Positions 46,940 to 63,500 of a stretch of 64,000 nt of DNA are shown piece by piece; within the stretch, counting starts at the first letter, position 1, and each line of letters begins with the position of its first letter. The position numbers and the translations under genes were made by a program. This stretch comes from a virus. The notes below the pieces were generated by a model. That model saw only the letters and a list, made by a program, of their open reading frames with translations, did no database searches and was not told the DNA's origin. The stretch is taken from IMG/VR virus record IMGVR_UViG_3300029953_000001, one strand, 5' to 3'.

Positions 46940-47806
46940 TTAGCATTTGGTGTTCTCCAGAACGTCGTGAGCCATGGCTTCCACGAGGGCTTCCTCGTAC
47001 AGCTTGCGTGCCTTGGCGATGTGCTCTTCGGTCTGAGGTACACCGCCAACGTTGACCGAGAGGAACAGCCAGAGAACGTCCGACCGCTTGACCCGGCTGG
47101 CTTGCAGCTTGGCGTACTGCACACCCAAGTCCGTGAACGAGTGCTTGTCGCCCCGGCTGAACTGGAACCACGTCTTGCCCTTGAACGTGAAGCGGCCCTC
47201 CATGAACTCGATGATGGCGTTCATACGCTGCTTGCCGTCGATGACTTCCAGACGGTAGTCCTCGTCACGTTCGAGGAACACAAACTTGCCGATGTCCGTC
47301 CTGTCCATGATGGAGTGGATGAGACGCTGCTTGTCTTCGAGCGACCACACGTAGTCACGCTGGTAGTCCGGCGATGTGATGAAGCCCCGGTGATACGCCA
47401 TGTGAACCAGTGAGTCCAGCGAGGTAGAGAGGTAGGAGGTCTGAAGGGACTCCCGGCCAAAGTTGGTGTCTTCTTCGGTGACGAGAGGCTCGACATCGTG
47501 CCACCAGCGATAGAGCGGGAGACGGCGGTTGTTGTCGAACGGCTTGCCATACTCCTGACCCACGTCTGAGCGGCTGATGTGAATCACCTTGCCGTCCATG
47601 AGAACCTCTTCGACCGTGCAGTCCACGAGGTTGCCGATGCGAACCTTCTCACCAACCTTGAAGTCGTAGTTGGGGGGGTTGACCTGAGCAAGTTGGTCGC
47701 GGATGTCACGCTGGAATGAACCCCACTCGTGGACGCGGAAATCCTCGTAGGTCTCAGGTGCCTTGGGTGCCTTGGGTGCCTTCGGCTTACGTGTCTTTGT
47801 AGTCAT
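46940..47806 (-). CDS. DUF262 / ParB-like nuclease domain protein with N-terminal KAPKAPKAP repeat
   Basis: YQRDYVWS...QRLIHSI...IGKFVF...EVIDGKQRMNAI matches DUF262 (QR..VW, DGQQR) as in GmrSD N-domain. Confidence 0.65.
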   Translation of the reverse strand: MTTKTRKPKAPKAPKAPETYEDFRVHEWGSFQRDIRDQLAQVNPPNYDFKVGEKVRIGNLVDCTVEEVLMDGKVIHISRSDVGQEYGKPFDNNRRLPLYRWWHDVEPLVTEEDTNFGRESLQTSYLSTSLDSLVHMAYHRGFITSPDYQRDYVWSLEDKQRLIHSIMDRTDIGKFVFLERDEDYRLEVIDGKQRMNAIIEFMEGRFTFKGKTWFQFSRGDKHSFTDLGVQYAKLQASRVKRSDVLWLFLSVNVGGVPQTEEHIAKARKLYEEALVEAMAHDVLENTKC

Positions 47807-47809
47807 GAC

Positions 47810-48406
47810 CTAACTCCGGTAGTAATGGTTCTGGCTGATGTAGGCGAAGGCTTCCTTCATGTTCTTGTACGTGCGCGAACTACCGAAGCGGGTGGAGATG
47901 ACCCAATACTCCCCCGTGAAGTAGAACTGCTCCACTTCGGTACACTCATCACACGTAAAGACGCCGAAGTGCTTGTGCCCAAAGTCATTCTTGGTGACAT
48001 AGAGTAGCAGGGTCTTTATCGCCTGACGCTGCCGCTCGTTGTGCTTGAGACCCTCAGGGCTACGTTGCAAGTCAATCGTAATGACCCGTTGTTGGGTATC
48101 CTTCCAGACGTTGCCACAGAATACCGCCGTCAGACCTAAGTCCGTGAGGGTCTTGACGAAAGCTGTGTACTTAGCGTCCGAGGTAGGGTACGCTGCCAGC
48201 AGGAACTTCCAGTCGAGCTTCTTCTTGGCAAGGGTGAGGCGATGGGCATGTTCGATGAGGTCGTTCATGTTTGCCTGAGTCACAGCAATCTGTGCCTCAA
48301 GGGGCTTGGTCATACGCTTGATTTCCTTGTCGAGAGCCTCGACCTGCTTCTGCTCAGCCATCGCCAGAGCCATCAGGGACTTCGCGGTATGTGTCTTGAT
48401 TGCCAT
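47810..48406 (-). CDS. Hypothetical protein (198 aa, start MAIKTHT)
   Basis: ATG 6 nt downstream of conserved TATACT element. Confidence 0.5.
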   Translation of the reverse strand: MAIKTHTAKSLMALAMAEQKQVEALDKEIKRMTKPLEAQIAVTQANMNDLIEHAHRLTLAKKKLDWKFLLAAYPTSDAKYTAFVKTLTDLGLTAVFCGNVWKDTQQRVITIDLQRSPEGLKHNERQRQAIKTLLLYVTKNDFGHKHFGVFTCDECTEVEQFYFTGEYWVISTRFGSSRTYKNMKEAFAYISQNHYYRS

Positions 48407-48904: not shown

Positions 48905-49717
48905 TTATAGCTCGATGCCGTACCGCTTGGCAATACGGTTGCGGGTACGCTCACGAACGGATGCGGCCTTGTTCTCTTCAGAGCTTCCCTGTGCTTCGGG
49001 AATCTCCAGCTTGGCTGGTGCCTCAGGCTTGGCGTTGTTGTCGCGGTCAGTGATGAACGGGACGGAGCCATCGGCCTTTTTTTCCTTCTTAGTATGAATC
49101 GGGTCTTTCTCTTTCTTATGGCACTCTTCGCAGAAATCTGTGCTGTGACCTGCCGCAAACGGGGTCATTTTGTAAGCGTGAGGTTTAGTTTTAATCTTGG
49201 CTTCCTTGTCGAAAGCTTCCTCAGCCGGTTTGGCTTCAGAAGACTCAAGTTCCTTTTCGCCTTCCTCGAACTTCTCCTCGTCAACGGTAATCTTCTCTTC
49301 AGGATGTTCCTTCTCGCCTTCGACAACTTCCTTCTCACCCTCTTCGGCGAAAGCATCTTCGACCGGGGTCAGGTCGAGGTCAATACCCATGTTCTCGGCG
49401 AGAGCTTCAATCGCACCGGCAACATCATCGAGTGAGTGATAAACCTCGCTGATAGCGTCGGCCACAACTTCAGGGGCCTCTTCAGCGATACGCTTGAACG
49501 CGGTCGCGTACTTCTTGGTGGTAGCAAGACGGACTTGGATGGAGGCAGTCTTCGGAGCCTCGATGAGGTCGAGATTGTCACGCAGGTTCGACAAGGCGTC
49601 GGCCATAGTGCCAAGAGCGTCGGCTACTTCCGCGAGAGCCACATCAGCTTCTTTCGGCTCCTCGCCAGCTACCTGACGGAGACGAGCCCACTTCGATTGT
49701 TCATTCTTACTAGCCAT
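48905..49717 (-). CDS. Acidic Glu/Lys/Ala-rich protein (270 aa); scaffold-like composition, function unknown
   Basis: Low-complexity helical composition; no motif. Confidence 0.5.
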   Translation of the reverse strand: MASKNEQSKWARLRQVAGEEPKEADVALAEVADALGTMADALSNLRDNLDLIEAPKTASIQVRLATTKKYATAFKRIAEEAPEVVADAISEVYHSLDDVAGAIEALAENMGIDLDLTPVEDAFAEEGEKEVVEGEKEHPEEKITVDEEKFEEGEKELESSEAKPAEEAFDKEAKIKTKPHAYKMTPFAAGHSTDFCEECHKKEKDPIHTKKEKKADGSVPFITDRDNNAKPEAPAKLEIPEAQGSSEENKAASVRERTRNRIAKRYGIEL

Positions 49718-50234: not shown

Positions 50235-51665
50235 TTAGTTCCCCACTCGATCATGAGAGGGATTATTAGCATGATGGTTAAGAACGCAATCGCCGCAGAA
50301 GAGACCCTTACATGCGGGGCACTCCGTGGGGTTGTTGCCCTTGCCACAACCCTTGCAGGTCGGGCTCTCCCACATCTTCGCGGTGTGAGCAGAAGCAGCC
50401 AACGCCATACCACCAAGTTCTGCAAGTGTGTCGCCCCCGATAGCACCTATAGCCCCTTCACCTTCGCCACTGATAGGAGCTTGCATGTTGAAGCTCTTAC
50501 CCTTATCATCCTGTGAGCCGCTGTCGGGAGGGGGGTTGAGGAAGTCTGCTACCGGACCCGCTACCTTCTTGTCAGGGGTACGATGGCAGCTACAGCAGTT
50601 GGAGTTACACTTGTGACCCTTATTTGATGTACGGGTCTCGCCGCACAGAGCACACTTGTCTTCAGCCGTCTTAGCCGAAGCTGCTACTGCCATGGCTTTC
50701 TGCTTTTTGCCAATCTGCCGCATGATTTCGAGGAAGGGGTTCGGACGGTAGCCCTTGCCCTGACGCTTGATGGCGATGTCAATCAGCTTGGGGAAGTCAC
50801 GCCAGACCTTCTTGAAGACAACTGGGTCTGCACCAATCTCAGCGTTCCATTCTTCGAAAAGGGTGGACTGCTTGACCGACTCCGATGCCTTGAATGCATC
50901 GTAAATCAAATCGAACAGCACCACGTAACGAGTAGCCTGAGATTCGCCGATGTTGGTGTTAAGCCAGTTGACGAAGAAGCTGCGGAAGTGGTTGATGTCG
51001 ATGTCGGTTTCGACAGCTTCATACTCACCCTCACTCGCGTGCTCTTCCGTGTCCAACACATTAACTTCCTTGCTGTCGTCATTACCCGGCGACCACATGG
51101 AGTCCGTGTTCTCTTGACGCATGACCTTCTTGATGTAGTTGTTGGCTTCTTCCACACGCCACATAAAAGTCTGAATCAGGAACAACGTGACCTGACGTTC
51201 TAGAGTTTCGGATTGTGTCTTCTCGGGGAAGGAGTGGATGCGTTCTTCGAACCGGCTAAGCACCTTGCGCTTTGCCAGCGCGTTAATGATGATATGGTGG
51301 ATGGCCTCGTCCTGCTCTTCCTCATCGCGAGACATAAGTTTGGGAGCGATTACTGCCGCGAACCACTTAGCCCAGTTCATGGTTTCGTCAACCGGCAGAC
51401 CGGACTCACGTATGTATTCCTTTACATACTGATCGAAGTCTTTGTTGAAAGCAACAATGTAACGCATCCAAGCAGCGTGACGTGCAAGGGCGGCAGTGAC
51501 TGGAAAAAAATCAGTTGGTGGTTGGACAGGCTTGCCCTGCAAGTCGGCGAAACAGTAACGTACCGTTCCTTCGGATGCCAATTTAGACGTGCAGCGAAAG
51601 ACACTCCCGTCAGCAGAATGGACGATAGCACCAGCACGGATGAGAGGGGAGAATTTGGCGTTCAT
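50235..51665 (-). CDS. Hypothetical protein (476 aa) with C-terminal multi-Cys zinc-finger cluster
   Basis: CALCGETRTSNKGHKCNSNCCSCH and CKGCGKGNNPTECPACKGLFCGDC; RBS AGGTGA before ATG. Confidence 0.55.
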   Translation of the reverse strand: MNAKFSPLIRAGAIVHSADGSVFRCTSKLASEGTVRYCFADLQGKPVQPPTDFFPVTAALARHAAWMRYIVAFNKDFDQYVKEYIRESGLPVDETMNWAKWFAAVIAPKLMSRDEEEQDEAIHHIIINALAKRKVLSRFEERIHSFPEKTQSETLERQVTLFLIQTFMWRVEEANNYIKKVMRQENTDSMWSPGNDDSKEVNVLDTEEHASEGEYEAVETDIDINHFRSFFVNWLNTNIGESQATRYVVLFDLIYDAFKASESVKQSTLFEEWNAEIGADPVVFKKVWRDFPKLIDIAIKRQGKGYRPNPFLEIMRQIGKKQKAMAVAASAKTAEDKCALCGETRTSNKGHKCNSNCCSCHRTPDKKVAGPVADFLNPPPDSGSQDDKGKSFNMQAPISGEGEGAIGAIGGDTLAELGGMALAASAHTAKMWESPTCKGCGKGNNPTECPACKGLFCGDCVLNHHANNPSHDRVGN

Positions 51666-51736
51666 GCTTTTTCACCTACTGTAGGTTTAGAAAATATTTA
51701 CCCGTGACATGGTTGACAATCAAATAAATGAACATA

Positions 51737-51767
51737 CGAATAACCCTCTAGTATAGAGGGTTATTCG
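51737..51767. promoter_or_regulatory. 31-nt perfect palindrome CGAATAACCCTCTA-GTA-TAGAGGGTTATTCG (recurring CCTCTA..TAGAGG motif)
   Basis: Seen in sequence in intergenic region. Confidence 0.5.
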
Positions 51768-51786
51768 TAGTTGACATTTCGACTGG

Positions 51787-52008
51787 TCAATCCGTGAGAG
51801 GATCGTTAGGTGCTCCGTCAGTCTTCTTATCTTCTGACATCACTGCCTTCAAAGTTTCGAGGTACTCGCTGTGATCCTCGAATGCTTGTGGGTCGTGGGG
51901 AGCACCCTTGTCGTCGGAAGCAGCGTACTTGACGCCCATGCGGTTCAATTCCGAACCGTAAAGTGAGTTCATCGCGTCTGCGTCGGACTTTGCGATTTTC
52001 TTAGCCAT
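51787..52008 (-). CDS. Hypothetical protein (73 aa from MAKKIAKSD; ORF track 51787..52035 uses upstream TTG)
   Basis: AGGAGA RBS 9 nt before ATG at 52008. Confidence 0.45.
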   Translation of the reverse strand: MAKKIAKSDADAMNSLYGSELNRMGVKYAASDDKGAPHDPQAFEDHSEYLETLKAVMSEDKKTDGAPNDPLTD

Positions 52009-52043
52009 GGTAACTTTTCTCCTGTTTGAGGTCAAAATGAAAT

Positions 52044-52087: not shown

Positions 52088-52495
52088 TCACTTCTTTGGC
52101 GTTGCTGGTGGTGCTGGTGTTGCCGCGGGTGGTGCTGGTGGTGCAGCCGTTTTGTACCACGCATCCTTGCTCTGGTCATACACATAACTGGTATCCCAGC
52201 CATTGTCCTTGCGAACACGTTCGACCCATGCGGCCTCCTGCCCTTCAAGGACAGCGTACTGAGCCTTCATTTCGGACATTTTCTCCTTGTACTCTCCGCT
52301 CATGGCAGCGGCGGAGAGAGTCAAAGTCGTTTCCTTCTCGATAGCGAGAAGAACCTGAGCATGGGCAAGGGGGTCAAGCACTTTGGCCGTCACTTCAGTA
52401 GGAGTGACTGTCGGGGTCGGGGTTGGCGGTGGGGTTGACTGAGCAAGGATGCTGGTGGACACCATTGCTAAAGTAAGTAGACCGATTAGCTTCAC
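52088..52495 (-). CDS. Secreted Pro/Thr-rich protein with N-terminal signal peptide
   Basis: MKLIGLLTLAMVSTSILAQS signal-like N-terminus; PPPTPTPT and APPAPPAATPAPPATP tracts. Confidence 0.5.
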   Translation of the reverse strand: MKLIGLLTLAMVSTSILAQSTPPPTPTPTVTPTEVTAKVLDPLAHAQVLLAIEKETTLTLSAAAMSGEYKEKMSEMKAQYAVLEGQEAAWVERVRKDNGWDTSYVYDQSKDAWYKTAAPPAPPAATPAPPATPKK

Positions 52496-52836
52496 TGTGG
52501 GGGTTCTCCTTGGGGGGGTACTGTAGTTGTAGGTACTGTGCTCTGCTGGTTATTCTCTGCCCAGCTAGACACTTTGTTAATACCGTACAAAGCCCCACAA
52601 GTAGTGACAATAAACGTTGCTCCAGAAGTAAGAAATGCATCGAACTGTTCGATGGTAACGTACTTGTGATGAACTGAAACAGCGAAGGAGATACCGACGC
52701 CGAGAATAAAGGCAATAAGACCAGCCATGTGAACTCGGGTTGAAGAGCCGGAACCATCCGACTCGCTATAGACAGACCTCAGCCAGCTAAACAAGGAAGA
52801 AAGAAACTTAAGTATGTAGGTAAATGCAGTGTTCAT
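52492..52836 (-). CDS. Membrane protein with two predicted TM helices (holin-like topology, speculative)
   Basis: Hydrophobic segments MAGLIAFILGVGISFAVSV and ATFIVTTCGALYG. Confidence 0.45.
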   Translation of the reverse strand: MNTAFTYILKFLSSLFSWLRSVYSESDGSGSSTRVHMAGLIAFILGVGISFAVSVHHKYVTIEQFDAFLTSGATFIVTTCGALYGINKVSSWAENNQQSTVPTTTVPPQGEPPQ

Positions 52837-52872
52837 GGAAGCTCTCCTTACTATGGAGTTTAAAGTCCAACT

Positions 52873-55800
52873 TTATTGAATGTAGCCTTTCAGAGTTCCC
52901 CCGTTAAGGGAGCTTCCCTTATGTGCAGTTACCCCCGATGATTCCACCCCGCCTATCGATGGCGGATTTGGCCGTGTGGTGCCATAGTAATCGGTCGTCA
53001 GCCCAGTGTAGATTCCGGTGTATATTGCTGGGCTTATCCCACTGAGGTAGAAACTATTGCCAGAGCCTGCGAACGGGTTGTATACATCAAACGCTGCTTC
53101 TGAAACCCAAGTTTGCGACGGCTCACTCAACATGAGCGGGTCGGCACAGAGGATGTGGTTCGTCCCGCAGGTATCCCCGCTTTGAACGCCGTACTCGATG
53201 TTGTACGAGGACACCATATCAACCGGATTCGTATCATCGAAGTAGTACATATCGGGCGGGTTGCCGGGGTTGAACGGAGACGCCGTGTATGGCGAGGTGT
53301 AGCCGAGAACGATGTTGTTTGTGAAGTTGTACGGCGTCGTCGTGCAGGCTCCGACCGTGTTGCATCCCGGCTCAAAGAAAATAGGCTGATAGCTAACGAA
53401 CGTGTTGTTTGTGAAGTTGACCGTGGCCCCCGCGTCCGCAAAGTAGTCGAACAGCGGACCACCGGCGCGGCAGTAGGTTGAGAGATATGAGCCGGGAAGC
53501 CCAGTCGTGATGTTGAAGTTCTGCGCCGCCCCGGTGAGCTGGACGGACAGCCTCATGCAGTTGCCCATCATCAGGTTGTTGTCGAAGACGAGCGTAGAGT
53601 TTGCGTCCTGCCCCCACTTCCCACTCTGTCCCATGTTGCCAATCCAAACGGAGTCTGTCAGGTTCAGATTGTGGATGAGCGTGTGTGGGCCCATGGCGCC
53701 GTCCTTCACGTTGTAGCCGATGTAGCAATGGTCGCAGGTAAAGGTATTGAGCAGAGAACCTTGCCCAGACCACGCATCGCCAAACCCGCCACTTCCTTGG
53801 TCCCAGCACGACTTCGCCGGATACGCGGTGTTGACGATTGGATACTGCTCCAGGCATCCGTTTCCGACCATGGTCACGTAGTGCTGCGTCAGTGTTGAAC
53901 CAGAAGCGTCTGGAGTCGCGTACCTTTGATAGGTTCCGCTGGTTGTAGCGGAGTCGTTTGCGTGAGTGAGTGGTCCGGTGATGGTTGTTGATGTCGCGCC
54001 CGTGATGATAATGGTCTGAGCGTTGAGGTAGGTGTACGGCGCGGAGAATCCTTCCAGTTGAATGAGGTTTCCTGCAACCAAGGTATTGCTCGCTGTCAGA
54101 GTGATGACGTTACTGGTGATGGAAAATGCAGTGACTGGTTCAGCCCCTCCACCTCCGTCATCGAAGTTCCAGCCAGCGAAGGCATTGAAGTCTACGGAGA
54201 CTCTGTTCAGGGTCGTAGGACCACCCAAGGGTCCACCGATCCCAAGGTTTGTGAAGCCGTGGATGTATAAATCCTGTAGTAGGATATTTGACGTAGCTTG
54301 GTTGATGATGACACCCCAGTTGGCGTAGTCACTTGCTGGTGAGCCGGAGCTACAAGTCGATGGATACTGCTGACCTCCTCCACCAATCGTCGTACACGCA
54401 CCATTGTGTGAGGTAATCTCCAGACCTTCTACATCAACGTATGAGCTACCACTCAAGTACAAGACTGCTCCTACTCCGAATCCTCCGAATAGCTGAGTTT
54501 CGTTACCGGAGAAAGGGTATCCAATCACAGGAGTGCAGTCCCCATCATAGGCACACCCTCCGAAGATTCTAGTAGGTTGCCCCGACGTTCCATTTTTGGG
54601 TGGAGGAATAGAGCACCCGTAGGAGGTTGTAACTCCATGACACAGGCCGTAGGTATTATTTGGATCGACTTGACCGATTCGGCAGGCCGGTGACGCCGGG
54701 TTGACTTCATTCGGCTGGTTAGCGCAGCTACGGATGACGTACGTGTCACCGCCGTTTCCAACCCACGCTTGATTGCCATACCCGCCTGTCGTGTATAGAT
54801 AGGGGGCTTCATTGAATGCACAGTGCTGATTCGGGGTTGAGCCTATAGGCGCTGTGTCCGCCGTACCATCGCAGGTACCGGTGGGGTTGTCCGTAGCATC
54901 ATAGCGAGGTCCACCATTTGATCGTACGAACCATGTCTGGGCTCCGACAAGGGTGTAAACCGCACTCACTACTGAAGAGTTCGTAAGCCCAGATTTAGTA
55001 CCTATAGCCTTCACAGTCTGTGTGGAAGAGACTGTGATCGGAGCAGAGTATGTAGACCCGCTTGAGCAGGTTCCGGGAGTTAATGCTGCGGGGGTTGAAC
55101 CATCAGTCGTGTAGCAGATCGTCGCGCCACTGGTAGAATCGCTGATCGTTACTGTCTGAGTGGATGTGTATGTGCCTGTCCCCGGCGAAAAGGTTGGGTT
55201 GGCGACCGGGGTTCCTACGTCGTCGGCCACATAAGGCGACCCAATTGAGTCGCTTGGATAGATAAACATAGCAGGCATAAGCCCAGAGACGGCGTTGTTT
55301 GACCCCGAGGTGCCCGAGCAGATGGTTGTGCTGGTGGTCACATCGGTGACTATATAACTATTTGGGGATGACCCTACCGTACCCGGCGTGAATTGAAATT
55401 TAATCGTGTGGCCTGACGCCGGTGCGGTCGAGCACCCGCCTAAATCTGCTCTAGAACCGCTACCCGCGACGATGTAGAAGACAGACCCGATATTGGGAAT
55501 GTAAAAATACCCATCGCCGGTTGTGTCGGCTACGCCTAGTCCAGAATATCCGCCCCCAGACCAATTCAAAACTGCCTGACTATAGTAGGGGTTGGTGAAC
55601 GTCAGACTATTGAGTGAAACCATGCAATAGCTGCCGCCCGATGTTACAGCGGTGCCAGAAGATGCTATGCAGGTTGACGGAGCAGTGCTGTCCTGAGTCC
55701 AATGGGAGCCAAGTGTTGAGCCTGTAAAGTTGTCCGTGTAAATCGGACCAGTAGCCCATGTGTACGTGGTCATCGAGAACGGGGGGAGCGTGTCGCCGGA

Positions 55801-58257
55801 CGGATTGCTCAACGTCGTAGGCGTAGGCTGGACGATGGGGGGCGTTCCGCTGCTGATTACAGTGCTCTCATTGTTGTCCGTGATGTTCGTGCTGGTAAAT
55901 ACGGTCTTCGTGACTGTCCCGGTTGGAGCCGCCGCGCCTGCAAAGGTCACCGCCTCGCTGCTGGTCAGGTTCAAGTTGTAGACGATGAGCGAGTAGTTCC
56001 CCGCCCCATCCCCGAATCCAAATGCCTGCACATACGGAACAGCGGGGTTAGCCACGATTTGATACGTGAGCGTCGTCCAGCCGGGATTGGGCTGCGCCGC
56101 TGGTGAACTGTAGGTCGGGGTTCCCGTCTGCGTGACGGCAAGCAGATTCGGCAGCATGGCGGCGTTGACCATATTCAGCGCGATTCCAGACGGCCTGTCC
56201 ACCACGCTTGCATTCGTCGGCCCCGGCATGATGCGATTAAAACCCCACAAGGGAGACTTGAGCGCACTGGAGGTACCGCAGGCTCCCGCCGTGTCGCTGG
56301 TCGCTGTATAAAAGGCGTTGGCGTCTTCCGGCAACGCAAAGGCGTTCTGTACCAGTACACCAGCATCGCGCACGCCGAGCAACATATTGAGCGTTGCATC
56401 CAAGCCTGAACCAATACCAGCTACCACGCCGTTGATGGTGCCTTGGGTGACTCCAGCCAGTCCGCATTGGGTGCCGAGGTTGGTCTCGTAGATCGCTCCC
56501 TGCACGCCGAAGTTTGATTGCGAATAGTGCTGGAGGAAGTAGGTATAGCCTGTGCCGGGAATATTAGACGACACCGAATTATAGTTTGAAAGCTCGGCGA
56601 ACATCGGTCCAAAAATGTTGGCATTGGAACTGGTGTCGGTCATGATGTTGAAGACATATGGAGCGCCGTCAATGTAATCGGGGGCAGAGCCCGAACTGGC
56701 GGCTTGCGTCAAGACGTTCTGGTTCCAGCCGCCGTTATCGTTCGACTCCAACACGAAGCCGGAACCAACCATCTTCATCTTTGAGTTGTAAAAGGACGAA
56801 TCCCTGAAAATCGCCGTATTCTCGCCGAGAAGGGTGCCGTAGACTAAGCCCTGATTCGCATACAGGTTCTGCCCGTTCGGGCCATTCCAAATCTCATTAC
56901 CCATCTCCAGATAGATGTGGTTAAAAACCGAAGTCCATGGGGTAATCTGCCCCGAGTTGCAACGGATAGTAGTGTAAGCATTGCCATTGCCGCACGTGCC
57001 TGACAGATATGCCTCAAGACTCTGCACGTCATAAGGGGTTGCGTAGGCGGAGAATGTTATCCACGGGTCAGCACCAATTGCAGACGCCAGTTGTAGTTGC
57101 TCTGGCCATCCAATGTCGATGATCCCGCCGTACTGACCAAAAGTACTCGCTGCGCACATCGCACGCGACTCGTAGGGAAGCATGACATTCTCGACTGTGC
57201 ATCCCCAGATGCCTCCCGTCATCAGACGTAGAATCCCCGGCTTCAACGCTAGAAGCCGCTGGTAGACGGCGTTGCGGAACGGTGTTGTGTTGCCACCGGT
57301 GGGTGCTTCGGTGAGCGCCACGTCCTGCACAATGACTGTGCCGCTGGCGACCGTGAGTTGGACGTTGATTCCTTCGGTTACTTGAGAGCCTGTCTCAGAC
57401 GCTGTGAAGGTCTCGGTGTAGTTCGTCCACCCGGCTCCGGCAGTTGCATTAACTGTGGGAGTCACTGTCCCAGTGGTGAAATATGTACCGCCAATTCGGT
57501 TTACCTGATACGAAATCGTCGGGGTTCCTGTGGTGCCCTTGGCACGGAAGCTCAGCGTATACGACCCATTCAGGTTGATCCACACGTTACCAAGGGCAGG
57601 CTGATCGGCCTGCATGGTCAGCGTATTTGGCGCGACCATATGGAGAGCCTGCGGGGCGGTAGAAGATGGCGACAGGTCTGTGGTCTCGAAAGAGCCGTTG
57701 GCTGTGCTGCTCAAGCCAAAGTAACCCGCTGAACTCGCCGCCGTCGATGTATACCCACCGGCGCAGGTGCTGAGAGCCGACGTACACCGCACGATCATCA
57801 AATCGCCGTTCGAGCATCCTGTTCCCCATGTGCCATGGAGAGTCTGCCCGTTGGACCCGGAGGCTGCGTCGCTTGACGTGATCGTTCCTGTCTCACCCGT
57901 GTCTGCGCCGTAAACAACCTGAAAAGTAGCTCCCTGCCAGAAGTTCGCAGGCTGTGGGGAGTACTGGTTCTGGTCAACCCATGTCGATGTGGTTCCCGAA
58001 AGGCAGGTTGTTGCCATGTTCCACATCTGCGGGTTAAAAGAACCACCCGCAGCGGCCAGCAGATTTGCCGACATCTGACCGTTGAGATAGAGCGCGCCAT
58101 CGTCAAGATTGACGCCAAAGACGTGCCCATTTGGACCTGTTGGCAGGACGGATTGGATACCGCCGCCCGACGCCACGGGAATCGTGATCGTCGTCTGGGC
58201 AAAAAGAGCCCCTGAAAACAATAAAACCAAAAATAGAACTAGGTTTTTACTTAGCAT
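52873..58257 (-). CDS. Giant (1794 aa) signal-peptide-bearing Ser/Thr/Gly/Asn-rich protein with predicted right-handed beta-helix (pectate-lyase-like) repeats; candidate tailspike/depolymerase or adhesin
   Basis: N-terminus MLSKNLVLFLVLLFSGALFAQTT; repetitive G/N/T/S beta-helix-like segments (e.g. NNLMMGNCMRLS, HNLNLTDSVWIGNMG). Confidence 0.65.
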   Translation of the reverse strand: MLSKNLVLFLVLLFSGALFAQTTITIPVASGGGIQSVLPTGPNGHVFGVNLDDGALYLNGQMSANLLAAAGGSFNPQMWNMATTCLSGTTSTWVDQNQYSPQPANFWQGATFQVVYGADTGETGTITSSDAASGSNGQTLHGTWGTGCSNGDLMIVRCTSALSTCAGGYTSTAASSAGYFGLSSTANGSFETTDLSPSSTAPQALHMVAPNTLTMQADQPALGNVWINLNGSYTLSFRAKGTTGTPTISYQVNRIGGTYFTTGTVTPTVNATAGAGWTNYTETFTASETGSQVTEGINVQLTVASGTVIVQDVALTEAPTGGNTTPFRNAVYQRLLALKPGILRLMTGGIWGCTVENVMLPYESRAMCAASTFGQYGGIIDIGWPEQLQLASAIGADPWITFSAYATPYDVQSLEAYLSGTCGNGNAYTTIRCNSGQITPWTSVFNHIYLEMGNEIWNGPNGQNLYANQGLVYGTLLGENTAIFRDSSFYNSKMKMVGSGFVLESNDNGGWNQNVLTQAASSGSAPDYIDGAPYVFNIMTDTSSNANIFGPMFAELSNYNSVSSNIPGTGYTYFLQHYSQSNFGVQGAIYETNLGTQCGLAGVTQGTINGVVAGIGSGLDATLNMLLGVRDAGVLVQNAFALPEDANAFYTATSDTAGACGTSSALKSPLWGFNRIMPGPTNASVVDRPSGIALNMVNAAMLPNLLAVTQTGTPTYSSPAAQPNPGWTTLTYQIVANPAVPYVQAFGFGDGAGNYSLIVYNLNLTSSEAVTFAGAAAPTGTVTKTVFTSTNITDNNESTVISSGTPPIVQPTPTTLSNPSGDTLPPFSMTTYTWATGPIYTDNFTGSTLGSHWTQDSTAPSTCIASSGTAVTSGGSYCMVSLNSLTFTNPYYSQAVLNWSGGGYSGLGVADTTGDGYFYIPNIGSVFYIVAGSGSRADLGGCSTAPASGHTIKFQFTPGTVGSSPNSYIVTDVTTSTTICSGTSGSNNAVSGLMPAMFIYPSDSIGSPYVADDVGTPVANPTFSPGTGTYTSTQTVTISDSTSGATICYTTDGSTPAALTPGTCSSGSTYSAPITVSSTQTVKAIGTKSGLTNSSVVSAVYTLVGAQTWFVRSNGGPRYDATDNPTGTCDGTADTAPIGSTPNQHCAFNEAPYLYTTGGYGNQAWVGNGGDTYVIRSCANQPNEVNPASPACRIGQVDPNNTYGLCHGVTTSYGCSIPPPKNGTSGQPTRIFGGCAYDGDCTPVIGYPFSGNETQLFGGFGVGAVLYLSGSSYVDVEGLEITSHNGACTTIGGGGQQYPSTCSSGSPASDYANWGVIINQATSNILLQDLYIHGFTNLGIGGPLGGPTTLNRVSVDFNAFAGWNFDDGGGGAEPVTAFSITSNVITLTASNTLVAGNLIQLEGFSAPYTYLNAQTIIITGATSTTITGPLTHANDSATTSGTYQRYATPDASGSTLTQHYVTMVGNGCLEQYPIVNTAYPAKSCWDQGSGGFGDAWSGQGSLLNTFTCDHCYIGYNVKDGAMGPHTLIHNLNLTDSVWIGNMGQSGKWGQDANSTLVFDNNLMMGNCMRLSVQLTGAAQNFNITTGLPGSYLSTYCRAGGPLFDYFADAGATVNFTNNTFVSYQPIFFEPGCNTVGACTTTPYNFTNNIVLGYTSPYTASPFNPGNPPDMYYFDDTNPVDMVSSYNIEYGVQSGDTCGTNHILCADPLMLSEPSQTWVSEAAFDVYNPFAGSGNSFYLSGISPAIYTGIYTGLTTDYYGTTRPNPPSIGGVESSGVTAHKGSSLNGGTLKGYIQ

Positions 58258-58591
58258 TGGTTACCCGAACTCCTGAAAGACCGTGTTGAACGGCGGGGAT
58301 TATTATGGTTTTACCGTCCACTTTTACTCTCTGTTCATTACCAGTTTGCCTAATTTGCACGTAGGTTCCCGTTCCCGTAGCACAGGTTGAAGGCGACCCT
58401 GTGAGCGTTACCGAGTCAGCACAGGTACCAATTTTATGATGTGCCCCGTGTGGTAGAACTATCTTATTCAGCTTCGTGTCCCCTACTATAACGTAGAGGG
58501 GGGTGAATACGATGGTCTGAGCCATCGCGGGGAGGCAGAATAGGAACAGTAGTAATCGAATATTCTTCACTGGTCGTGCTCCTTCTTCCAA
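58247..58591 (-). CDS. Small secreted protein with signal peptide (114 aa)
   Basis: LLLFLFCLPAMAQT signal-like N-terminus. Confidence 0.4.
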   Translation of the reverse strand: MEEGARPVKNIRLLLFLFCLPAMAQTIVFTPLYVIVGDTKLNKIVLPHGAHHKIGTCADSVTLTGSPSTCATGTGTYVQIRQTGNEQRVKVDGKTIIIPAVQHGLSGVRVTNAK

Positions 58592-58773
58592 TTAATACCC
58601 GCGTCCCAGAATAAGACTGCGAAAGCACGCATCTTTTCTTCCCCTGCAATTACCGGGAGCGAATCGGCGACAGGAGAAATGTGTCGCGACTTCCACCGCT
58701 CCCACTGCTTGTTGAAATGTAACCTGCTGTTGAACTGCAATCTGCTCTGCTGTTCATCCATGCCATACCCCTC

Positions 58774-61700
58774 TTAGTTAGCCTGTGTAAGAGTACAGTC
58801 CACCGTGTACCCACCGACAGTACCCGATGTTGATACAGCATAGGTGAAGTTATTAGTCGCGAACGTTGCTACGGTGGATACCTGAATCGGTGATCCGTTG
58901 AGGTTCGGGTGCCCTGTCGTCGTGTTTAGCGCCGGGTAGGAGTAGGACTGCGCATTTCCGGCTGGGTCTGTATACCCAAGGGTAACTGTCGCTGTACCAG
59001 CCCAAGCTGTGGTAACCCAAAGAGAACAACCGTAATACCATGGCCCACTCTGGTTCTGCGAATCGTTGAACAAGGTAGTTGTGCCTATTGGACCTGTAGC
59101 AGCTATCTGACCTGTGTCGGCACGGTCTGCTGATGTCCCGACGCCAACCGTTGGGAATCCTTCCAGATTGTTGATTGCGCCCGGTATACCCAAGTGTCCA
59201 TATAGGTCGAAGTGGAAGGAATACCCGTTAGGCAGCTTAATGTCGAGAGGGTCACCCAACTGTCCGGGACCAGAAAGAATTCGTACGGCGGTGTTCCCAG
59301 TTCCAGACGTTGTATCCTGTATGTCCAAAGTATCTGTTGGCACAAATGTAGTTGGACCAATTCCAAGGGAGCCTGCGTTAGTGTATAGGTTGCTTACACT
59401 ACCGCCTGCCGCAGCGCAAGCCCCGTCGCCGCGTAGGAAGGTTGACGATGAGCAGGAACCAGACCACAACCCGTACACGTCAGCCGCTACCGCATCCGAG
59501 ATTGCTCCGGTCGTAGTCGTGTTCTTGACGATACCTGTAGCCAGAGTAGCCCAATTCTGGTTGCTCGTTCCGAGTGTGAGAGTTGCTGTGTTAGCTACCC
59601 CCGAGCCGCCCTGAGCAGGACTCCATATGCTTGTCTCACCCGCCGCACCCACATCCCACGTTACCTTTCCGGTTGAAATTGGAACATACATATAGAACTG
59701 ACCCACCGTCGGAGTACCTGACCCCGTAGCCTCGTTCAGCCCTAAACACCCGCCCGTGATTGTAGAGCATCCCGTAGGAGGAGAGACCCCTGATGAGAGG
59801 GAACCGGTGGCCGTGAGAGCTACAAACGTTGCGTCGCCACTGGCATCGATCTGCGCCGGGCATGTCCCAACTACAGTGGTGCTCGACCCGGAGCATCCGA
59901 ATCCTGCGATGCCATGCACTGACAGTGGGTACGGAACGGCATTTCCAGCCGTCCAGTTCAGCCCTACGTTGCCAACGTGGGCAGGCCACAGGCTGTAAGG
60001 GTTGTAACTATCAATCCAGACCATTCCGGTATTGGGTCCGTTCTCGCCTCTTAGCGCGACGCCACCGGCAAAGGAATTTACCGAAGGGTAGCCAAAACCG
60101 CTTGCGTACAAGTCGATTCGGTCTGAAGTTGAACCAATGCTGGCGAAAGACTCTCCGCTCATAAGCAGATGTCCGGCTGTGCTGCTATTGCCGAAAACAC
60201 CATCCAGCGGCGCAAATGGAGCGTTCGCTGAAATCACACCACCTTGCGTCACTCCATAATCGAGATAGCTACTGTTACAAAATGTTCCACCTGAGAAGCA
60301 AGCCGAGTTACCGTTAAACAACCACTGGCCACTTGTGTTGCTGCTGATTGTATTTCCAGCAGGGTCTTTGAACTCCGTCATACTGGTTTGTCCGGTAGCC
60401 CAGTTGTTCCACTGAAAGGCAATACCATATGGAGATAAATTACTGATGAAGTCGGACCCAAACAGTCCAGATGTCGATCCTCCAAATCCCTCAGTTCCAG
60501 CACTCATAAAGGTTGGAGGAGCGGCTCCTTTTAGCGAACCGTCAGCGTTTAGGTAAAAACTCTCATCGTTTGCATTTTCGATATCAATAGCACCACCGTT
60601 ACTAGCAGTCGCTCCGAGACCAGATTCCTGAAAAAAGAACCCTTGGCATCCGGCTTCACCAGCAGTAAGGCACCGATTTGTCCCTTGTATGAATGCGGTG
60701 CCTTGTTCATCGAAGTTAGTGTCAGAGACTACCTCTGCTGACCACGTCCCACCGTTAGGTCCTAGCTGAAAAGTAGACGGAGGAGTTCCTGACCCAGACT
60801 TCACAATTCTTGCGGCAGGATAAAGGGTGACGTTCGATGGCGTTGTTCCCCGGTTGGCAAAGGTACAGGTTCCCCACGTTGTGTGTCCATTCAGAGAGCT
60901 ATTCCAAGCTGGGAAAGTGCTGCCAGAGGTGCAAGATGAGGTAGTAATATTTTGCTGATCGTTCACACCATCAAACACGTAGGTGTTTGTGTAGTTGTAC
61001 ACAAATGACGTAGTAGCAGGTAGAGACACTTGCATTTGTTCAGAGTATTGTTGCGGAAGTTGAAATGGGTTGACCGACGAAGTACCTTCAGTCATATAGA
61101 TAAGGTTTGTCCCATCAAGAGAATCTGTCGCCCAGTACCCCGTACGCAAGTTGTAAGGCGAGGCAAGGTCGGCTGCTGATGTTAGGTTGTGAAGATGGCT
61201 TTTCAGGACGACGACACTGACGTTCGGACGAGTAATTGGCAACGTGATTGTCTGAGTCGGAGCCGAGCCGGATACACCTGTGATTTTGGACTCTTCAAGA
61301 AACTGATTACCAATTACTGCAACGGAGTCTCCTATGCTAAAAGTACCTGACCCTCCTTGCATGGCGATGGATGTGGACACAGGAGCATCTGGCGTTGTGT
61401 TAGGCTCCAGATTCACGTTAATTGCGCATCCACCAACTGAAGTGGTGGGAAGACCACCAGAAGTCGCCATCTGGTACATCCAATAAAGGGCTGCTGTATT
61501 GCATGGTGCAGACCACGCAGTGAATCCCGTCGAATATCCTCGCAACTGAGTAGTAACAATTGGTGCAGTAGTTTCCACAAGCTGTGATCCCGCCGAAGGC
61601 CAGCACTGCTGAGGAATACCGGGTCCACCACAATTATGTGCCGAGAAGGTTATGTTCGGTGCTGAGTAGGTTCCAACGGTAGGTGAGTCGGGGACTGCTT

Positions 61701-62553
61701 CACCACCCAATTCGTGAAATGCGACATTGCCTTCGTCACTGGAATAAGCCCTTCCAGCTTGCGATGCATTGTAGAGATATATCCCTCCGGTATCACCTAC
61801 ACTAGGGGCAAAGTGCCAGATAGTCAAAGCCTGCTTTGTCGAAGCCGCCGACATATTGTCATAAATTTGAACCGTGGTGGCAGACGTTCCTTCTGCGGCT
61901 AATAGCCCATTCGATAAAGAGTAAGGTCCATACGAGGTCATATTAAATGTATGACCTGATGTCCCATTTGTGAGTGGAGGTTGCAAGGTGTAGTTTTCCT
62001 CAAAAGCGGACAGACCTCCGTAGATCGCCCCCGGTTGAGTGAAGAATGACGCATTGGGTGCTGTGAGATTCTGAGTCGAGGTGCCCAGCGTCTGTGTAAC
62101 CTGCGTAATACCCGCCGTGCTTTCGTTGATGTGTGAGGGACCACCAATAGTGTTAGCATTAGTTGCCAGACCTACATAATTGGGGGTTTGACCTACGACC
62201 GAGCCACTGCCCCCACTCCCGCTACAGGAGAGCACTCCCGCTGAAACCGTGCAGGAAGTTCCGTCTGGCTTCATAAGTCCAAGGGTTGAGTTAGTTGCGA
62301 CTGGAGCATTGGAGGACAGTGCATCCCAATAGGAGGATAGAGATGCCGGAGTGTGCCCCGAGTTATTGGCGACCTTGGAGATGTAAGTCAACCCACCATA
62401 GGTAACCATGTCGTTGACGTTATAGGATATTGAGCCACTCCACGCCCCCAGATATACTACCAGCGTACGTGTAATTTGGGCGGAAAGGGGGGTGGGGGCG
62501 GCTACACCCAGTCCAACAGCCATCGCCAATATTACCAACAAAAGTCGCTTCAT
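58774..62553 (-). CDS. Giant (1259 aa) signal-peptide protein with N-terminal CBM5/12-like carbohydrate-binding module and Ser/Thr/Gly-rich beta-rich body; candidate fibre/adhesin
   Basis: MKRLLLVILAMAVGLGVAAPTPLSAQ; W..G..YNVNDMVTYGGLTYISKVANNSGHTP....YWDAL resembles CBM5/12 (W..G..Y..GD.V.Y.G..Y.......G..P....W). Confidence 0.65.
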   Translation of the reverse strand: MKRLLLVILAMAVGLGVAAPTPLSAQITRTLVVYLGAWSGSISYNVNDMVTYGGLTYISKVANNSGHTPASLSSYWDALSSNAPVATNSTLGLMKPDGTSCTVSAGVLSCSGSGGSGSVVGQTPNYVGLATNANTIGGPSHINESTAGITQVTQTLGTSTQNLTAPNASFFTQPGAIYGGLSAFEENYTLQPPLTNGTSGHTFNMTSYGPYSLSNGLLAAEGTSATTVQIYDNMSAASTKQALTIWHFAPSVGDTGGIYLYNASQAGRAYSSDEGNVAFHELGGEAVPDSPTVGTYSAPNITFSAHNCGGPGIPQQCWPSAGSQLVETTAPIVTTQLRGYSTGFTAWSAPCNTAALYWMYQMATSGGLPTTSVGGCAINVNLEPNTTPDAPVSTSIAMQGGSGTFSIGDSVAVIGNQFLEESKITGVSGSAPTQTITLPITRPNVSVVVLKSHLHNLTSAADLASPYNLRTGYWATDSLDGTNLIYMTEGTSSVNPFQLPQQYSEQMQVSLPATTSFVYNYTNTYVFDGVNDQQNITTSSCTSGSTFPAWNSSLNGHTTWGTCTFANRGTTPSNVTLYPAARIVKSGSGTPPSTFQLGPNGGTWSAEVVSDTNFDEQGTAFIQGTNRCLTAGEAGCQGFFFQESGLGATASNGGAIDIENANDESFYLNADGSLKGAAPPTFMSAGTEGFGGSTSGLFGSDFISNLSPYGIAFQWNNWATGQTSMTEFKDPAGNTISSNTSGQWLFNGNSACFSGGTFCNSSYLDYGVTQGGVISANAPFAPLDGVFGNSSTAGHLLMSGESFASIGSTSDRIDLYASGFGYPSVNSFAGGVALRGENGPNTGMVWIDSYNPYSLWPAHVGNVGLNWTAGNAVPYPLSVHGIAGFGCSGSSTTVVGTCPAQIDASGDATFVALTATGSLSSGVSPPTGCSTITGGCLGLNEATGSGTPTVGQFYMYVPISTGKVTWDVGAAGETSIWSPAQGGSGVANTATLTLGTSNQNWATLATGIVKNTTTTGAISDAVAADVYGLWSGSCSSSTFLRGDGACAAAGGSVSNLYTNAGSLGIGPTTFVPTDTLDIQDTTSGTGNTAVRILSGPGQLGDPLDIKLPNGYSFHFDLYGHLGIPGAINNLEGFPTVGVGTSADRADTGQIAATGPIGTTTLFNDSQNQSGPWYYGCSLWVTTAWAGTATVTLGYTDPAGNAQSYSYPALNTTTGHPNLNGSPIQVSTVATFATNNFTYAVSTSGTVGGYTVDCTLTQAN

Positions 62554-62603: not shown

Positions 62604-63500
62604 CTACAAAGAGATGAGGTCAAAGGCACCATTGGTGATATAAAGCTTATAGGGGAGATTGGTTTCAATGTCAGTAAACGGCAGGTAGGGAACCCCCACT
62701 CCACTCAGCACTGGGATAAACTCCAATGCACCACTCGTGACTTGAAGCTGGTACAAGCTGCTCGTAACCGAGTCAATCAGTATCACCTCACTCACGCCTG
62801 CTGCCACTACAACAGGGATGACAGTCACTGCTCCATCTGCAACTACAACGTTATAGGCACCCTCTGTAACGGTATCCACAAATGTGAATACAAGCACCGT
62901 AACTTGAGCCGTTGTAGTAAGTGCGAGGTGCCCCACCACGTCATAGGCGTCCAACGTAAAGAGAGTTGTTGTAGACACTCCTTCTGGAAAGAACACACTC
63001 CCAACGCCCCCTGTATCGATGAGCCCAGAGTCATACCCCGTCGCCGTTATTCTAATTTGAACAATACCCGTGGTCTCCCAGATAAGGGTGAGGGGGACGT
63101 AAAGGGCTGTGACCGAGTTAGGGATAGCTCTAAGGATTGCAGTTGGGGTGGGGTTTGTTCCTACGTCTCCTGCGCTACTGTACCCTGCTATCAAAGCGAA
63201 GCTGGGTAACCCCCTCACCCCTGAGTCTATAAAGAAGGGTCTGGGCATGTGGTGTATGGCTTGAATCACTCCCTGTAGGTTGATTGAAGTGTCCATATAG
63301 AGCAGGTACCTATTATTTTCGACATCGAACGCGAATGTACGTACCGGGGTGAGGTACCCATCCACATACACTTCAAGGTCGCGGCGAGGGTCGAACTCCC
63401 CTAGAGGTCCTTCCTGCACAAATGGACCGAGGTAGTCATTCAGAATCCACTGGATGCGGTCAGGGTAGGGGGTATTGGTTTCAAAACTAAACATCGTCAT
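62604..63500 (-). CDS. Hypothetical beta-rich protein (298 aa), probably part of fibre module
   Basis: ORF; Val/Thr/Gly-rich composition. Confidence 0.5.
   Translation of the reverse strand: MTMFSFETNTPYPDRIQWILNDYLGPFVQEGPLGEFDPRRDLEVYVDGYLTPVRTFAFDVENNRYLLYMDTSINLQGVIQAIHHMPRPFFIDSGVRGLPSFALIAGYSSAGDVGTNPTPTAILRAIPNSVTALYVPLTLIWETTGIVQIRITATGYDSGLIDTGGVGSVFFPEGVSTTTLFTLDAYDVVGHLALTTTAQVTVLVFTFVDTVTEGAYNVVVADGAVTVIPVVVAAGVSEVILIDSVTSSLYQLQVTSGALEFIPVLSGVGVPYLPFTDIETNLPYKLYITNGAFDLISL

Follow-up and report, generated by a model that had tools for sequence, protein, structure and literature searches.

Predicted Sec signal peptides on giant fibre- and depolymerase-type proteins of a probable Acidobacteriaceae jumbo phage

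A block of signal-peptide proteins among late phage genes

The DNA analysed here, referred to throughout as the window, is a 64,000-nucleotide stretch of IMG/VR virus record IMGVR_UViG_3300029953_000001. Our subject is a block at 52,088-62,553 on its minus strand, built around two giant open reading frames (ORFs) that we call p1 and p2. In order, the block encodes p2, a protein of 64 amino acids (aa), one of 107 aa, p1, and proteins of 114 and 135 aa. The limits of both large ORFs coincide with those given by a sequence-only reading of the window, which had described very large proteins with classical secretion signals, and the ORFs and their Sec-type N-termini agree with that description. The genes of the block, its signals and its edges are as follows (a slash marks predicted cleavage).

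62604..63500 (-): 298-aa flanking gene, homologue of Tunturi_5 gp343 (BLASTP 32%, E 1e-20); upstream edge of the cassette
58774..62553 (-): p2, fibre-type protein with an N-terminal signal peptide, 1259 aa
62476..62553 (-): predicted p2 signal peptide, aa 1-26, MKRLLLVILAMAVGLGVAAPTPLSA/QIT; rule score 5.27
58567..58761 (-): 64-aa ORF with no signal peptide and no transmembrane segment; called on independent contigs
58247..58570 (-): 107-aa signal-peptide protein, MKNIRLLLFLFCLPAMA/QT; score 4.83; present in the gene calls of four contigs
52873..58257 (-): p1, chimeric double protein of the carbohydrate-active enzyme (CAZyme) type, 1794 aa
58198..58257 (-): predicted p1 signal peptide, aa 1-20, MLSKNLVLFLVLLFSGALFA/QTT; an N-terminal helix in the structure model
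52492..52836 (-): 114-aa membrane protein with a strong transmembrane segment at aa 37-55 and a weaker second one at about aa 70-88
52088..52495 (-): 135-aa signal-peptide protein, MKLIGLLTLAMVSTSILA/QS; Pro/Thr-rich linker and helical core
51787..52035 (-): 82-aa flanking gene, homologue of Tunturi_5 gp344 (BLASTP 43%, E 5e-15); downstream edge of the cassette
51735..51769 (-): terminator-like hairpin (16-bp stem and T-rich tail) that closes the transcription unit

Signal peptides were called over 78 greedy gene calls in the window with a crude rule-based, von Heijne-style script of our own, not with SignalP. Only four of the 78 gave strong calls, namely p1, p2 and the 107- and 135-aa proteins, and all four fall within this one block; the interleaved small signal-peptide proteins pointed out in the sequence-only reading are thus both among them. 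The N-termini of p1 (MLSK, then NLVLFLVLLFSGALF, then LFA/Q) and p2 (MKR, then LLLVILAMAVGLGVAA, then LSA/Q) fit what is expected of Sec signals cleaved by signal peptidase I, for which we required a positive n-region, an uncharged h-region of 8-15 residues, small residues at positions -3 and -1 and no lipobox Cys. Neither protein has a further hydrophobic segment beyond the signal. The A-Q-T ending of the p1 signal is common to its bacterial and phage homologues, nearly all of which keep a signal peptide ending in A-Q-T/S. The start codons are well supported by Shine-Dalgarno sequences or translational coupling, the p2 ATG being preceded by GGAGG at 4 nt and the p1 ATG overlapping the stop of the upstream gene. 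A downstream start yielding isoforms that lack the signal appears unlikely, as no in-frame start with a Shine-Dalgarno sequence follows either signal peptide, and a C-terminal sorting signal of the PEP-CTERM type was rejected because the C-terminus has no hydrophobic segment. In composition p1 and p2 are as extremely rich in Ser, Thr, Gly and Asn as had been noted (42-44% together), and Lys, Arg, Asp and Glu make up just 7.5-7.8%.

Of the small genes, the 107-aa one more likely starts at GTG 58570, with AAGGAG upstream, than at the previously assigned 58247..58591. The 114-aa protein has no family match; it had been described as spanning the membrane twice, of which one span is strong and the other weaker.

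The window encodes an SNF2 helicase and a large terminase with a LAGLIDADG intein, and a gene for a major head protein is found on the same strand, some 8 kb upstream of p2; together these identify it as phage DNA. The head protein is 72.6% identical to its homologue in Tunturiibacter phage Tunturi_5 and the terminase 45%. Tunturi_5, a jumbo myovirus with a genome of 309 kb, was isolated on a host of the Acidobacteriota (PMC11924767). Seven contigs of JGI, ENA and Logan assemblies contain the exact p2 sequence, the two longest measuring 317,300 and 431,749 bp, and the exact p1 sequence was found on three. The source is likely to be a Tunturi_5-like jumbo myovirus, and the host a peat-bog member of the Acidobacteriaceae. 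There are no tRNAs in the window.

The corresponding locus of Tunturi_5 (L026, 284114-298448) has the order gp333, head gp334, gp335, tail gp336, gp337-gp342, gp343, gp344, gp345. The present phage has homologues of gp333, gp334, gp335, gp336, gp343, gp344 and gp345, with the block between those of gp343 and gp344. All six of gp337-gp342 (1381, 602, 120, 135, 1293 and 1186 aa) have signal-peptide-like N-termini, the genes flanking them lack signal peptides, and the large proteins of the set contain 6-19 cysteines. The two phages have non-homologous cargo but share its position, the size pattern and the signal peptides, and on this comparison the block reads as a hypervariable host-envelope cassette in a conserved late locus. 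In pairwise comparisons the small cassette proteins have no similarity to the same-sized gp339 and gp340, and the 135-aa protein in particular has none detectable to gp340. A search of PHROGs left p1, p2, the small proteins and, on related contigs, most of the neighbours without a match, and a scan for promoter-like sequences gave nothing above chance. A lysis cassette, suggested by a membrane protein together with a helical protein that has a signal peptide, was considered and rejected, no endolysin being detected in the window.

Beyond the downstream edge the gp345 homologue is split. A 476-aa protein (50235..51665 (-)) matches the N-terminal part and a 270-aa protein (48905..49717 (-)) the C-terminal part of gp345, which is annotated as 'virion structural protein', and a 156-aa ORF lies between them. 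The 476-aa protein has 14 Cys, including five CxxC motifs.

Modular architecture and host origin of p1

Structure prediction, one of the checks proposed in the sequence-only reading, was run on p1 and gave a GH51-like barrel and a right-handed beta-helix, joined and flanked by smaller modules.

57298..58188 (-): N-terminal beta-sandwich region with a CBM4-like module, aa 24-320, from the structure model
56098..57273 (-): GH51-like (beta/alpha)8 barrel, aa 329-720, from profile and Foldseek matches
56893..56895 (-): E455 codon, putative acid/base position
56485..56487 (-): E591 codon, putative nucleophile position
55753..56049 (-): beta-sandwich following the barrel, aa 737-835, which aligns with the GH51 C-terminal sandwich
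55216..55746 (-): low-confidence segment, aa 838-1014, predicted local distance difference test (pLDDT) score about 25
54955..55185 (-): CHB_HEX_C_1/Fn3_assoc module, aa 1025-1101; Pfam E 5.5e-15, above the gathering cut-off
52933..54948 (-): right-handed beta-helix module, aa 1104-1775, predicted from its Cys conservation to be rich in disulfides

Homology searches place aa 1-1103 in a large family of 1300-2900-aa proteins, many of which carry PF22848 (ASD1_dom, arabinofuranosidase-type) together with CHB_HEX repeats. In a 41-member alignment the G-N-E455-x-W-N motif (EMGNEIWN in p1) and Y590-E591 are invariant. Direct sequence searches of the PDB with p1 gave nothing useful; the family profile (A1) matches GH51 arabinofuranosidases there (E 1.4e-7) with the GNE acid/base motif aligned, and also the CBM4 of laminarinase 16A (1gui, E 3e-6). 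Foldseek with the AF2 model likewise ranks GH51 first among PDB structures (E 1.7e-23, target-normalised TM-scores 0.67-0.73) and GH79 next. The model has the (beta/alpha)8 barrel and C-terminal beta-sandwich expected of clan GH-A/GH51, and E455 and E591 stand at the ends of modelled strands 448-452 and 586-593. This puts the Asn-Glu pair after strand 4 and the second Glu after strand 7, as in the clan, so that the two residues would serve as acid/base and nucleophile. We use the term 'GH51-like', and not GH51 member, because no Pfam glycoside hydrolase model was reached at its curated threshold. A search of viral predicted structures returned no match to the barrel and hit the accessory sandwiches only; for the N-terminal region the viral matches are CBM-CenC proteins. 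The sequence-only reading had no glycosidase in its account and so missed the TIM-barrel enzyme in the N-terminal 840 residues. The segment at aa 838-1014 has no Pfam match and is also present in some bacterial homologues. The CHB_HEX_C_1/Fn3_assoc module is the sole Pfam match in p1 and is confidently modelled (aa 1020-1103 in the AlphaFold model).

The beta-helix is modelled with a pLDDT of 88.6 and a predicted TM-score (pTM) of 0.88. Its best fold matches are the GH136 lacto-N-biosidases LnbX/TnX (E 1e-7), PL9 Pel9A and PL6 lyases, with phage tailspikes and capsule depolymerases ranked after these enzymes. A family built on the C-terminal 695 residues has 378 detected members, most of them stand-alone Acidobacteriota proteins of about 600 aa with TWFVRxDGGTRY immediately after a signal peptide. 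Across 69 sequences, conservation reaches 93% or more at 19 of the 20 Cys, and the Cys form ten sequence-local pairs, a pattern typical of disulfide-bonded extracytoplasmic proteins. None of the 69 matches the Pfam Beta_helix, Pectate_lyase_3 or polysaccharide lyase and glycoside hydrolase models at E up to 1, and the family profile (A2) has no match among PDB sequences. Pectate-lyase-like beta-helices had been proposed for both giant proteins; they are supported only for the C-terminal third of p1 (aa ~1104-1775). In p1 the module contains an insertion of about 80 aa (aa 1369-1446, 53920..54153, pLDDT 60-75), which is shared with the phage homologue P0111 and missing from most bacterial family members. 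The module begins ...VGAQ/TWFVR (54940..54960, aa ~1100-1106). This corresponds to the mature N-terminus of the stand-alone proteins (...A/TTWFVR), so that the fusion lies where a signal peptide was once cleaved off.

Both enzyme modules have their closest relatives in exopolysaccharide (EPS)-type loci of Acidobacteriaceae. The closest relative of the glycosidase part, P0001, is 84% identical to p1 over aa 6-836, and the two genes are 78.8% identical over 2456 nt beginning at nt 58, just past the signal peptide. P0001 lies on a bacterial contig beside genes for a family 4 glycosyltransferase (GT4), Wzy_C and two acyltransferases, and this contig comes from the ENA study series (ERZ2724-2725xxxx) that also yielded p2-bearing contigs. 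Comparable neighbourhoods surround P0043 (1.24-Mb contig; rmlACD, GT2, GT4, Wzy), P0009 (60% identical to p1; GT2, GT4, Wzx, WecG) and P0179 (3.95-Mb chromosome; GT2, GT4, polysaccharide deacetylase). The closest named genomes are metagenome-assembled genomes of Acidobacteriaceae, including one recovered from the SPRUCE peat bog. Over its whole length, from residue ~6 to ~1791, p1 aligns collinearly with secreted modules of bacteria, and its sequence relationships indicate assembly from two secreted enzymes of Acidobacteriaceae EPS biosynthesis loci. A fairly recent capture from the host lineage is likely. The DNA homology starts after the signal peptide, yet p1 keeps a canonical signal of its own, differing in sequence, which argues for selection to retain it.

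The GC content of the N-terminal part of p1 (56.3%) is above that of the window (52.4%) and below that of the P0001 contig (59.3%). This, with the 79% DNA identity to a bacterial gene, is also what a bacterial fragment wrongly joined to a phage contig would give. Such an artefact is extremely improbable, given that the gene order around p1 and p2 is identical across independent JGI, ENA and Logan assemblies, that homologues of Tunturi_5 genes flank the block on both sides on the same strand with tight or overlapping junctions, that the GC content of p2 (51.9%) fits the phage, and that fused p1 homologues are present on other viral contigs too. GC is likewise raised, to 0.556-0.571 against ~0.52, at 44001..48000 and 28001..30000 of the window, which are possible further recent acquisitions.

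A host-derived glycosidase could also be auxiliary metabolic or lysogenic-conversion cargo, with p1 aiding host nutrition, for example by degrading plant arabinan or hemicellulose, or remodelling EPS for a lysogen. The GH51-like fold would suit such a role, GH51 enzymes being typically arabinofuranosidases, and CAZyme genes are known in soil viruses, about 5% of prophage CAZymes having signal peptides (PMC13507307). The bacterial homologues of p1, however, sit in loci for the biosynthesis of EPS and not for the use of plant polymers, which makes an acidobacterial EPS, and not arabinan, the probable substrate. The closest isolate is a jumbo myovirus, the genes lie in a late structural operon and not in a self-regulated moron-like island, the enzyme is fused to a tailspike-like beta-helix beside a fibre-type neighbour, and the signal trait spans entire sets of fibre-like proteins. 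The operon location and the fibre-type neighbours make independence from infection mechanics, by which an auxiliary metabolic gene (AMG) is recognised, doubtful, and we regard this explanation as very unlikely.

Fibre-type proteins with signal peptides in related phages

Two modules could be delineated in p2.

62326..62445 (-): CBM5/12-like module, aa 37-76, a borderline match to Pfam CBM_5_12
59374..59646 (-): conserved fibre linker module, aa ~970-1060, ...GGSGVANTATLTLGTSNQNWATL...FLRGDGAC...

The first follows the signal peptide directly. The carbohydrate-binding module with which p2 had been said to open is a borderline call: CBM_5_12 (PF02839) scores 20.3 bits with the whole protein and 26.0 bits (E 9e-6) with the isolated segment, against a gathering cut-off of 26.2. 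On inspection the segment has W38, Y43, Y51, Y56 and W74. Word-indexed homology search found only p2 itself, tblastn against 50,697 phage genomes gave no match, direct PDB sequence searches gave nothing useful, the p2-family profile (A3) matched no PDB sequence or Pfam model, and hhalign of that family against the p1 beta-helix family (A2) was negative. An exhaustive HMMER search detected 255 distant relatives, of which the best 149 were examined. The linker module of about 90 aa is present in 119 of these 149, which differ widely in length, at up to 86% identity, and is frequently repeated inside one protein; aa ~80-800 align with a set of 1000-1200-aa proteins at 25-36% identity. Hydrophobic, signal-peptide-like N-termini are present in 105 of the best 149. 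Where their context is readable the relatives end phage tail modules, and two carry matches to trimeric-fibre domains, namely P0231 to Peptidase_S74 (26.7 bits, above the cut-off of 22) and P0249 to K1-lyase_C (22.7 bits, below the cut-off of 27). A short motif at p2 aa 81-123 (62185..62313), GLMKPDGTSCTVSAGVLS..., recurs in relatives and is found in tandem in P0320 (up to 8 copies) and P0244 (2-3 copies). Its pattern is thus that of a small repeat element in proteins of the fibre type.

The signals are not confined to this phage. In the podovirus Tunturi_2 (L010, 13371-22744) we found signal peptides on gp13 ('tail fiber'), gp14 ('pectin lyase'), gp16 and gp17, and in the siphovirus Tunturi_4 (L025, 83651-87324) on gp113 and gp114; Tunturi_2 gp17 and Tunturi_4 gp114 are members of the p1 beta-helix family. 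In the Tunturi records, labels such as 'tail fiber' and 'virion structural protein' stem from automatic annotation, not proteomics; the paper that describes these phages says nothing of signal peptides and includes no proteomic analysis of virions (PMC11924767). On IMG/VR viral contigs, homologues of the p1 modules are signal-positive in 26 of 33 cases, against 33 of 274 background genes (Fisher p = 2e-15). Among the other same-strand proteins with a length of 500 aa or more, 18 of 35 are positive (51%, p = 3e-7 against the same background). The metagenomic phage contigs L007, L013, L015 and L016 have two to four consecutive large proteins with a signal, and in L013 and L015 the run stops just before a lysis-type gene. 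After the run, L013 (12180-13470) encodes a transmembrane protein, a Phage_lysozyme protein, a second transmembrane protein and a lipoprotein with an LLAGC lipobox, and L015 (14156-16560) a lipoprotein and an SLT_3 transglycosylase. The recurrence in the Tunturi isolates and in dozens of viral contigs indicates a lineage-wide feature and not the peculiarity of one phage.

The motif [ST]PN(Y/L)xL(T/S)xPxxGxxxWGPxxxx(D/N)(F/L)xx(I/L)D immediately follows the predicted cleavage site of Tunturi_5 gp337 and gp341 and of Tunturi_2 gp13, and begins at residue 2 in Tunturi_4 gp112, which has no signal peptide. By this comparison the signal looks to have been appended to a standard fibre N-terminus. 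The sites are:

L026:12115-12300 and L026:18997-19180 (Tunturi_5), fibre N-terminal motif
L010:2279-2450 (Tunturi_2), fibre N-terminal motif
L025:6139-6250 (Tunturi_4), fibre N-terminal motif

These observations could be explained if p2, and possibly p1, were virion receptor-binding proteins matured outside the cytoplasm, which would be exported through Sec, cleaved, folded and oxidised in the periplasm, and attached to particles at the holin breach or after lysis. In phage T4, fibre attachment is established as the last and a separable step of assembly. The cassette's place in a structural operon near head and tail genes, syntenic with the annotated tail fibres gp337-gp342, speaks for such a role. 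So do the Peptidase_S74 intramolecular chaperone and the sub-threshold K1-lyase_C among the p2 relatives, with their position at the end of tail modules, and the fibre motif set exactly after the cleavage site. With 51% of the large neighbours signal-positive, whole fibre sets would carry the signal, and the cargo is hypervariable between related phages, as receptor-binding proteins should be. On the other side, p1 lacks a recognisable virion anchor, the fibre and virion labels are automatic, a literature search found no precedent for periplasmic maturation of tailed-phage fibres, and Tunturi_5 (gp28, gp29) and Tunturi_4 (gp111, gp112) also have fibres without a signal. The coexistence of such fibres means that virions need not depend on the signal-bearing set. 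We hold receptor-binding proteins of this kind to be a serious possibility, at something like one chance in three.

That the proteins are ordinary fibres or spikes made in the cytoplasm, with hydrophobic N-termini that are relics or have another role, is unlikely. Cytoplasmic assembly is the default for fibres of tailed phages, the position in a structural operon would fit, and the host genes from which the p1 modules were taken already encoded signal peptides. But the signals are retained in many divergent phage lineages, including on fibre-type proteins with no bacterial counterparts, and that of p1 has diverged from the bacterial one and is still canonical. The cytoplasm would not oxidise ten conserved Cys pairs, and a functional Sec signal would divert a cytoplasmic structural protein to the membrane and be selected against. 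Thus the conservation of the signals across divergent lineages, the independent canonical signal of p1, the Cys pairs and the fusion at a cleavage site point to real Sec export and not to inert relics, and on these sequence patterns we consider export probable.

Several features of the phage lie outside the cassette. The structural genes are crowded with selfish elements. The intein-bearing terminase lies at 20903..23938 (-), and there is no intein at the corresponding site of Tunturi_5; the homologue of the tail protein gp336 is interrupted by a Hint/intein element (823 aa, against 344 aa in Tunturi_5, where it is uninterrupted); and an HNH homing endonuclease follows the major head gene directly, with none at the matching Tunturi_5 site. 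The interrupted gp336 homologue and the HNH endonuclease were located at L002:6596-9067 and L002:2926-4344. In a 365-aa protein at 2588..3685 (-), an InPase (inorganic pyrophosphatase-like) domain is recognised at E 1.7e-34 along with a weak PARP-like match; minor head proteins and DarB-like antirestriction proteins are among its neighbours in PHROGs. A protein with a GmrSD_N domain, the N-terminal domain of a restriction-type nuclease, is encoded at 46940..47806 (-), and a two-domain glycosyltransferase (GT2 and Fringe/galactosyl-T-like) at 36706..38307 (-) may have a role in host-glycan or DNA modification.

Site of action and relation to known systems

For p1 we lean, tentatively and at a little under even chances, towards a soluble, non-virion depolymerase of EPS. 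The proteins of the block would carry functional Sec signals and reach the periplasm late in infection, where signal peptidase I would remove the signal and, at least in the beta-helix module of p1, about ten disulfides would form. p1 would then be a chimeric double enzyme, in which a GH51-like retaining glycosidase (acid/base E455, nucleophile E591) is joined to a CAZyme-type beta-helix, and would cut the EPS of the infected cell from the periplasm and the surrounding matrix after lysis, letting progeny escape without being trapped or wasted on debris. p2, with its chitin-binding-type module, would be exported beside it as a glycan-binding partner. Consistent with a free state, p1 aligns to bacterial enzymes and has neither a recognisable virion-anchor domain nor an N-terminal particle-attachment domain of the phage type. 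Its descent from enzymes of EPS loci, and the presence of signal-free fibres in related phages, favour the same view.

Several points weigh against a free enzyme. The cassette is deep in the structural operon, with a tail protein and homologues of virion genes around it and no adjoining endolysin. Relatives of p2 have trimeric-fibre domains (Peptidase_S74, K1-lyase_C) and take the position after the tail genes expected of receptor-binding proteins. In Tunturi_5 and Tunturi_2 the standard fibre motif comes straight after the predicted cleavage site, and the fibre- or spike-like proteins gp13, gp14 and gp17 of the examined Tunturi_2 tail region all carry signal peptides. Before lysis, an enzyme in the periplasm could act on external EPS only if it had a way through the outer membrane; EPS is suggested as the substrate by the genomic neighbourhood of the bacterial homologues only; and the signal calls themselves come from a crude rule-based script. 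The sequence-only reading had offered either depolymerase or adhesin fibres exploiting secretion, or secreted effectors. Its glycan targeting and its signals are supported, and both of its options are still live. As a more general proposal, tailed phages of Acidobacteriota may send receptor-binding proteins and depolymerases through Sec; the fibres would be cleaved, folded and disulfide-bonded in the periplasm and would join particles assembled in the cytoplasm only at the holin opening of the inner membrane or after lysis, which we regard as possible but doubtful.

For this soil phylum, dominant yet poorly studied, either reading would add new biology. Giant fibre- or depolymerase-type sets with predicted Sec signals are found in this jumbo phage, in dozens of viral contigs and in three cultured Tunturiibacter phages that between them cover the three tail morphologies. 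Secretion of host-derived EPS-degrading enzymes before lysis would, if true, amount to a Sec-dependent exit or receptor-destroying strategy. The alternative would mean receptor-binding proteins that mature outside the cytoplasm; periplasmic fibre maturation, if shown, would be categorically new, and Sec-routed fibres would constitute an extracytoplasmic step of virion assembly across podo-, sipho- and jumbo myoviruses of Acidobacteriota. p1 is a clear case of a phage capturing enzymes of a host EPS locus (79% nucleotide identity) and points to a peat-bog Acidobacteriaceae host. Its modules are candidate enzymes for acidobacterial EPS, which is among the major carbon polymers of soil and helps to form aggregates. 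As both the Tunturi phages and their hosts can be cultured, the choice between the two readings is directly testable.

Assembly of tailed phages is cytoplasmic by the textbook account. In the literature we searched, Sec signals are nowhere described for phage proteins of fibre or depolymerase type, and the Bacteroidota phages proposed in the sequence-only reading as a precedent for secretion-exploiting fibres found no counterpart there. The same reading had called Sec signals unusual on virion fibres, and rightly so, in that lack of a signal peptide has even been used as evidence for phage origin (PMC6199706).

Among known systems, tailspikes and depolymerases (HK620, P22, LKA1 gp49, phi297 gp61, the Klebsiella K1 lyase and other Klebsiella examples) share the fold class of the C-terminal part of p1, and they too are encoded in the late structural region with cargo that varies between related phages. 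They have no signal peptide and an N-terminal particle-binding domain, whereas p1 has a Sec signal and no anchor. The p1 beta-helix also differs from them in that its best fold matches are bacterial CAZymes (GH136, PL9), in its roughly ten conserved Cys pairs, and in its fusion to a second enzyme, the TIM-barrel glycosidase. Enzymes of GH51 and clan GH-A (2vrk, 6zps, 1pz3 and the GH79 beta-glucuronidase of Acidobacterium capsulatum) resemble p1 in the barrel and sandwich, the GNE motif and the Glu at the nucleophile position, but identity to GH51 structures is only 11-16% and p1 stays below every Pfam glycoside hydrolase threshold.

Periplasmic hydrolases and lyases are known within bacterial EPS operons, examples being PslG, BcsZ, PelA and AlgL. 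The bacterial relatives of p1 are likewise signal-peptide enzymes encoded among glycosyltransferase, Wzx/Wzy, rml and acyltransferase genes; they are far larger (1300-2900 aa) and multi-modular, and the p1 gene itself is carried by a jumbo phage of lytic type. CAZyme AMGs of soil viruses and prophages, about 5% of which have signal peptides in prophages (PMC13507307) and which include a viral chitosanase (PMC9485262), provide further cases of a host-derived glycoside hydrolase with a signal peptide on a soil virus. Most have a single domain and are regarded as metabolic cargo, in contrast to p1, which lies in a conserved structural-operon cassette with signal-bearing fibre-type proteins.

The Tunturi phages have the closest arrangement, with the syntenic cassette and the 72.6% identical head protein in Tunturi_5 and a like pattern of signal peptides and Cys-rich proteins, although the cassette contents are not homologous to p1 and p2 except for the beta-helix/CHB_HEX module. 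Phage proteins known to use Sec include Lys44 of fOg44, signal-arrest-release (SAR) endolysins, the T4 antiholin RI and spanins (PMC6116005). These also have N-terminal signals and are exported before lysis, but they are small lysis proteins, whereas in p1 and p2 the signal is found on giant fibre- or depolymerase-type proteins of 1200-1800 aa.

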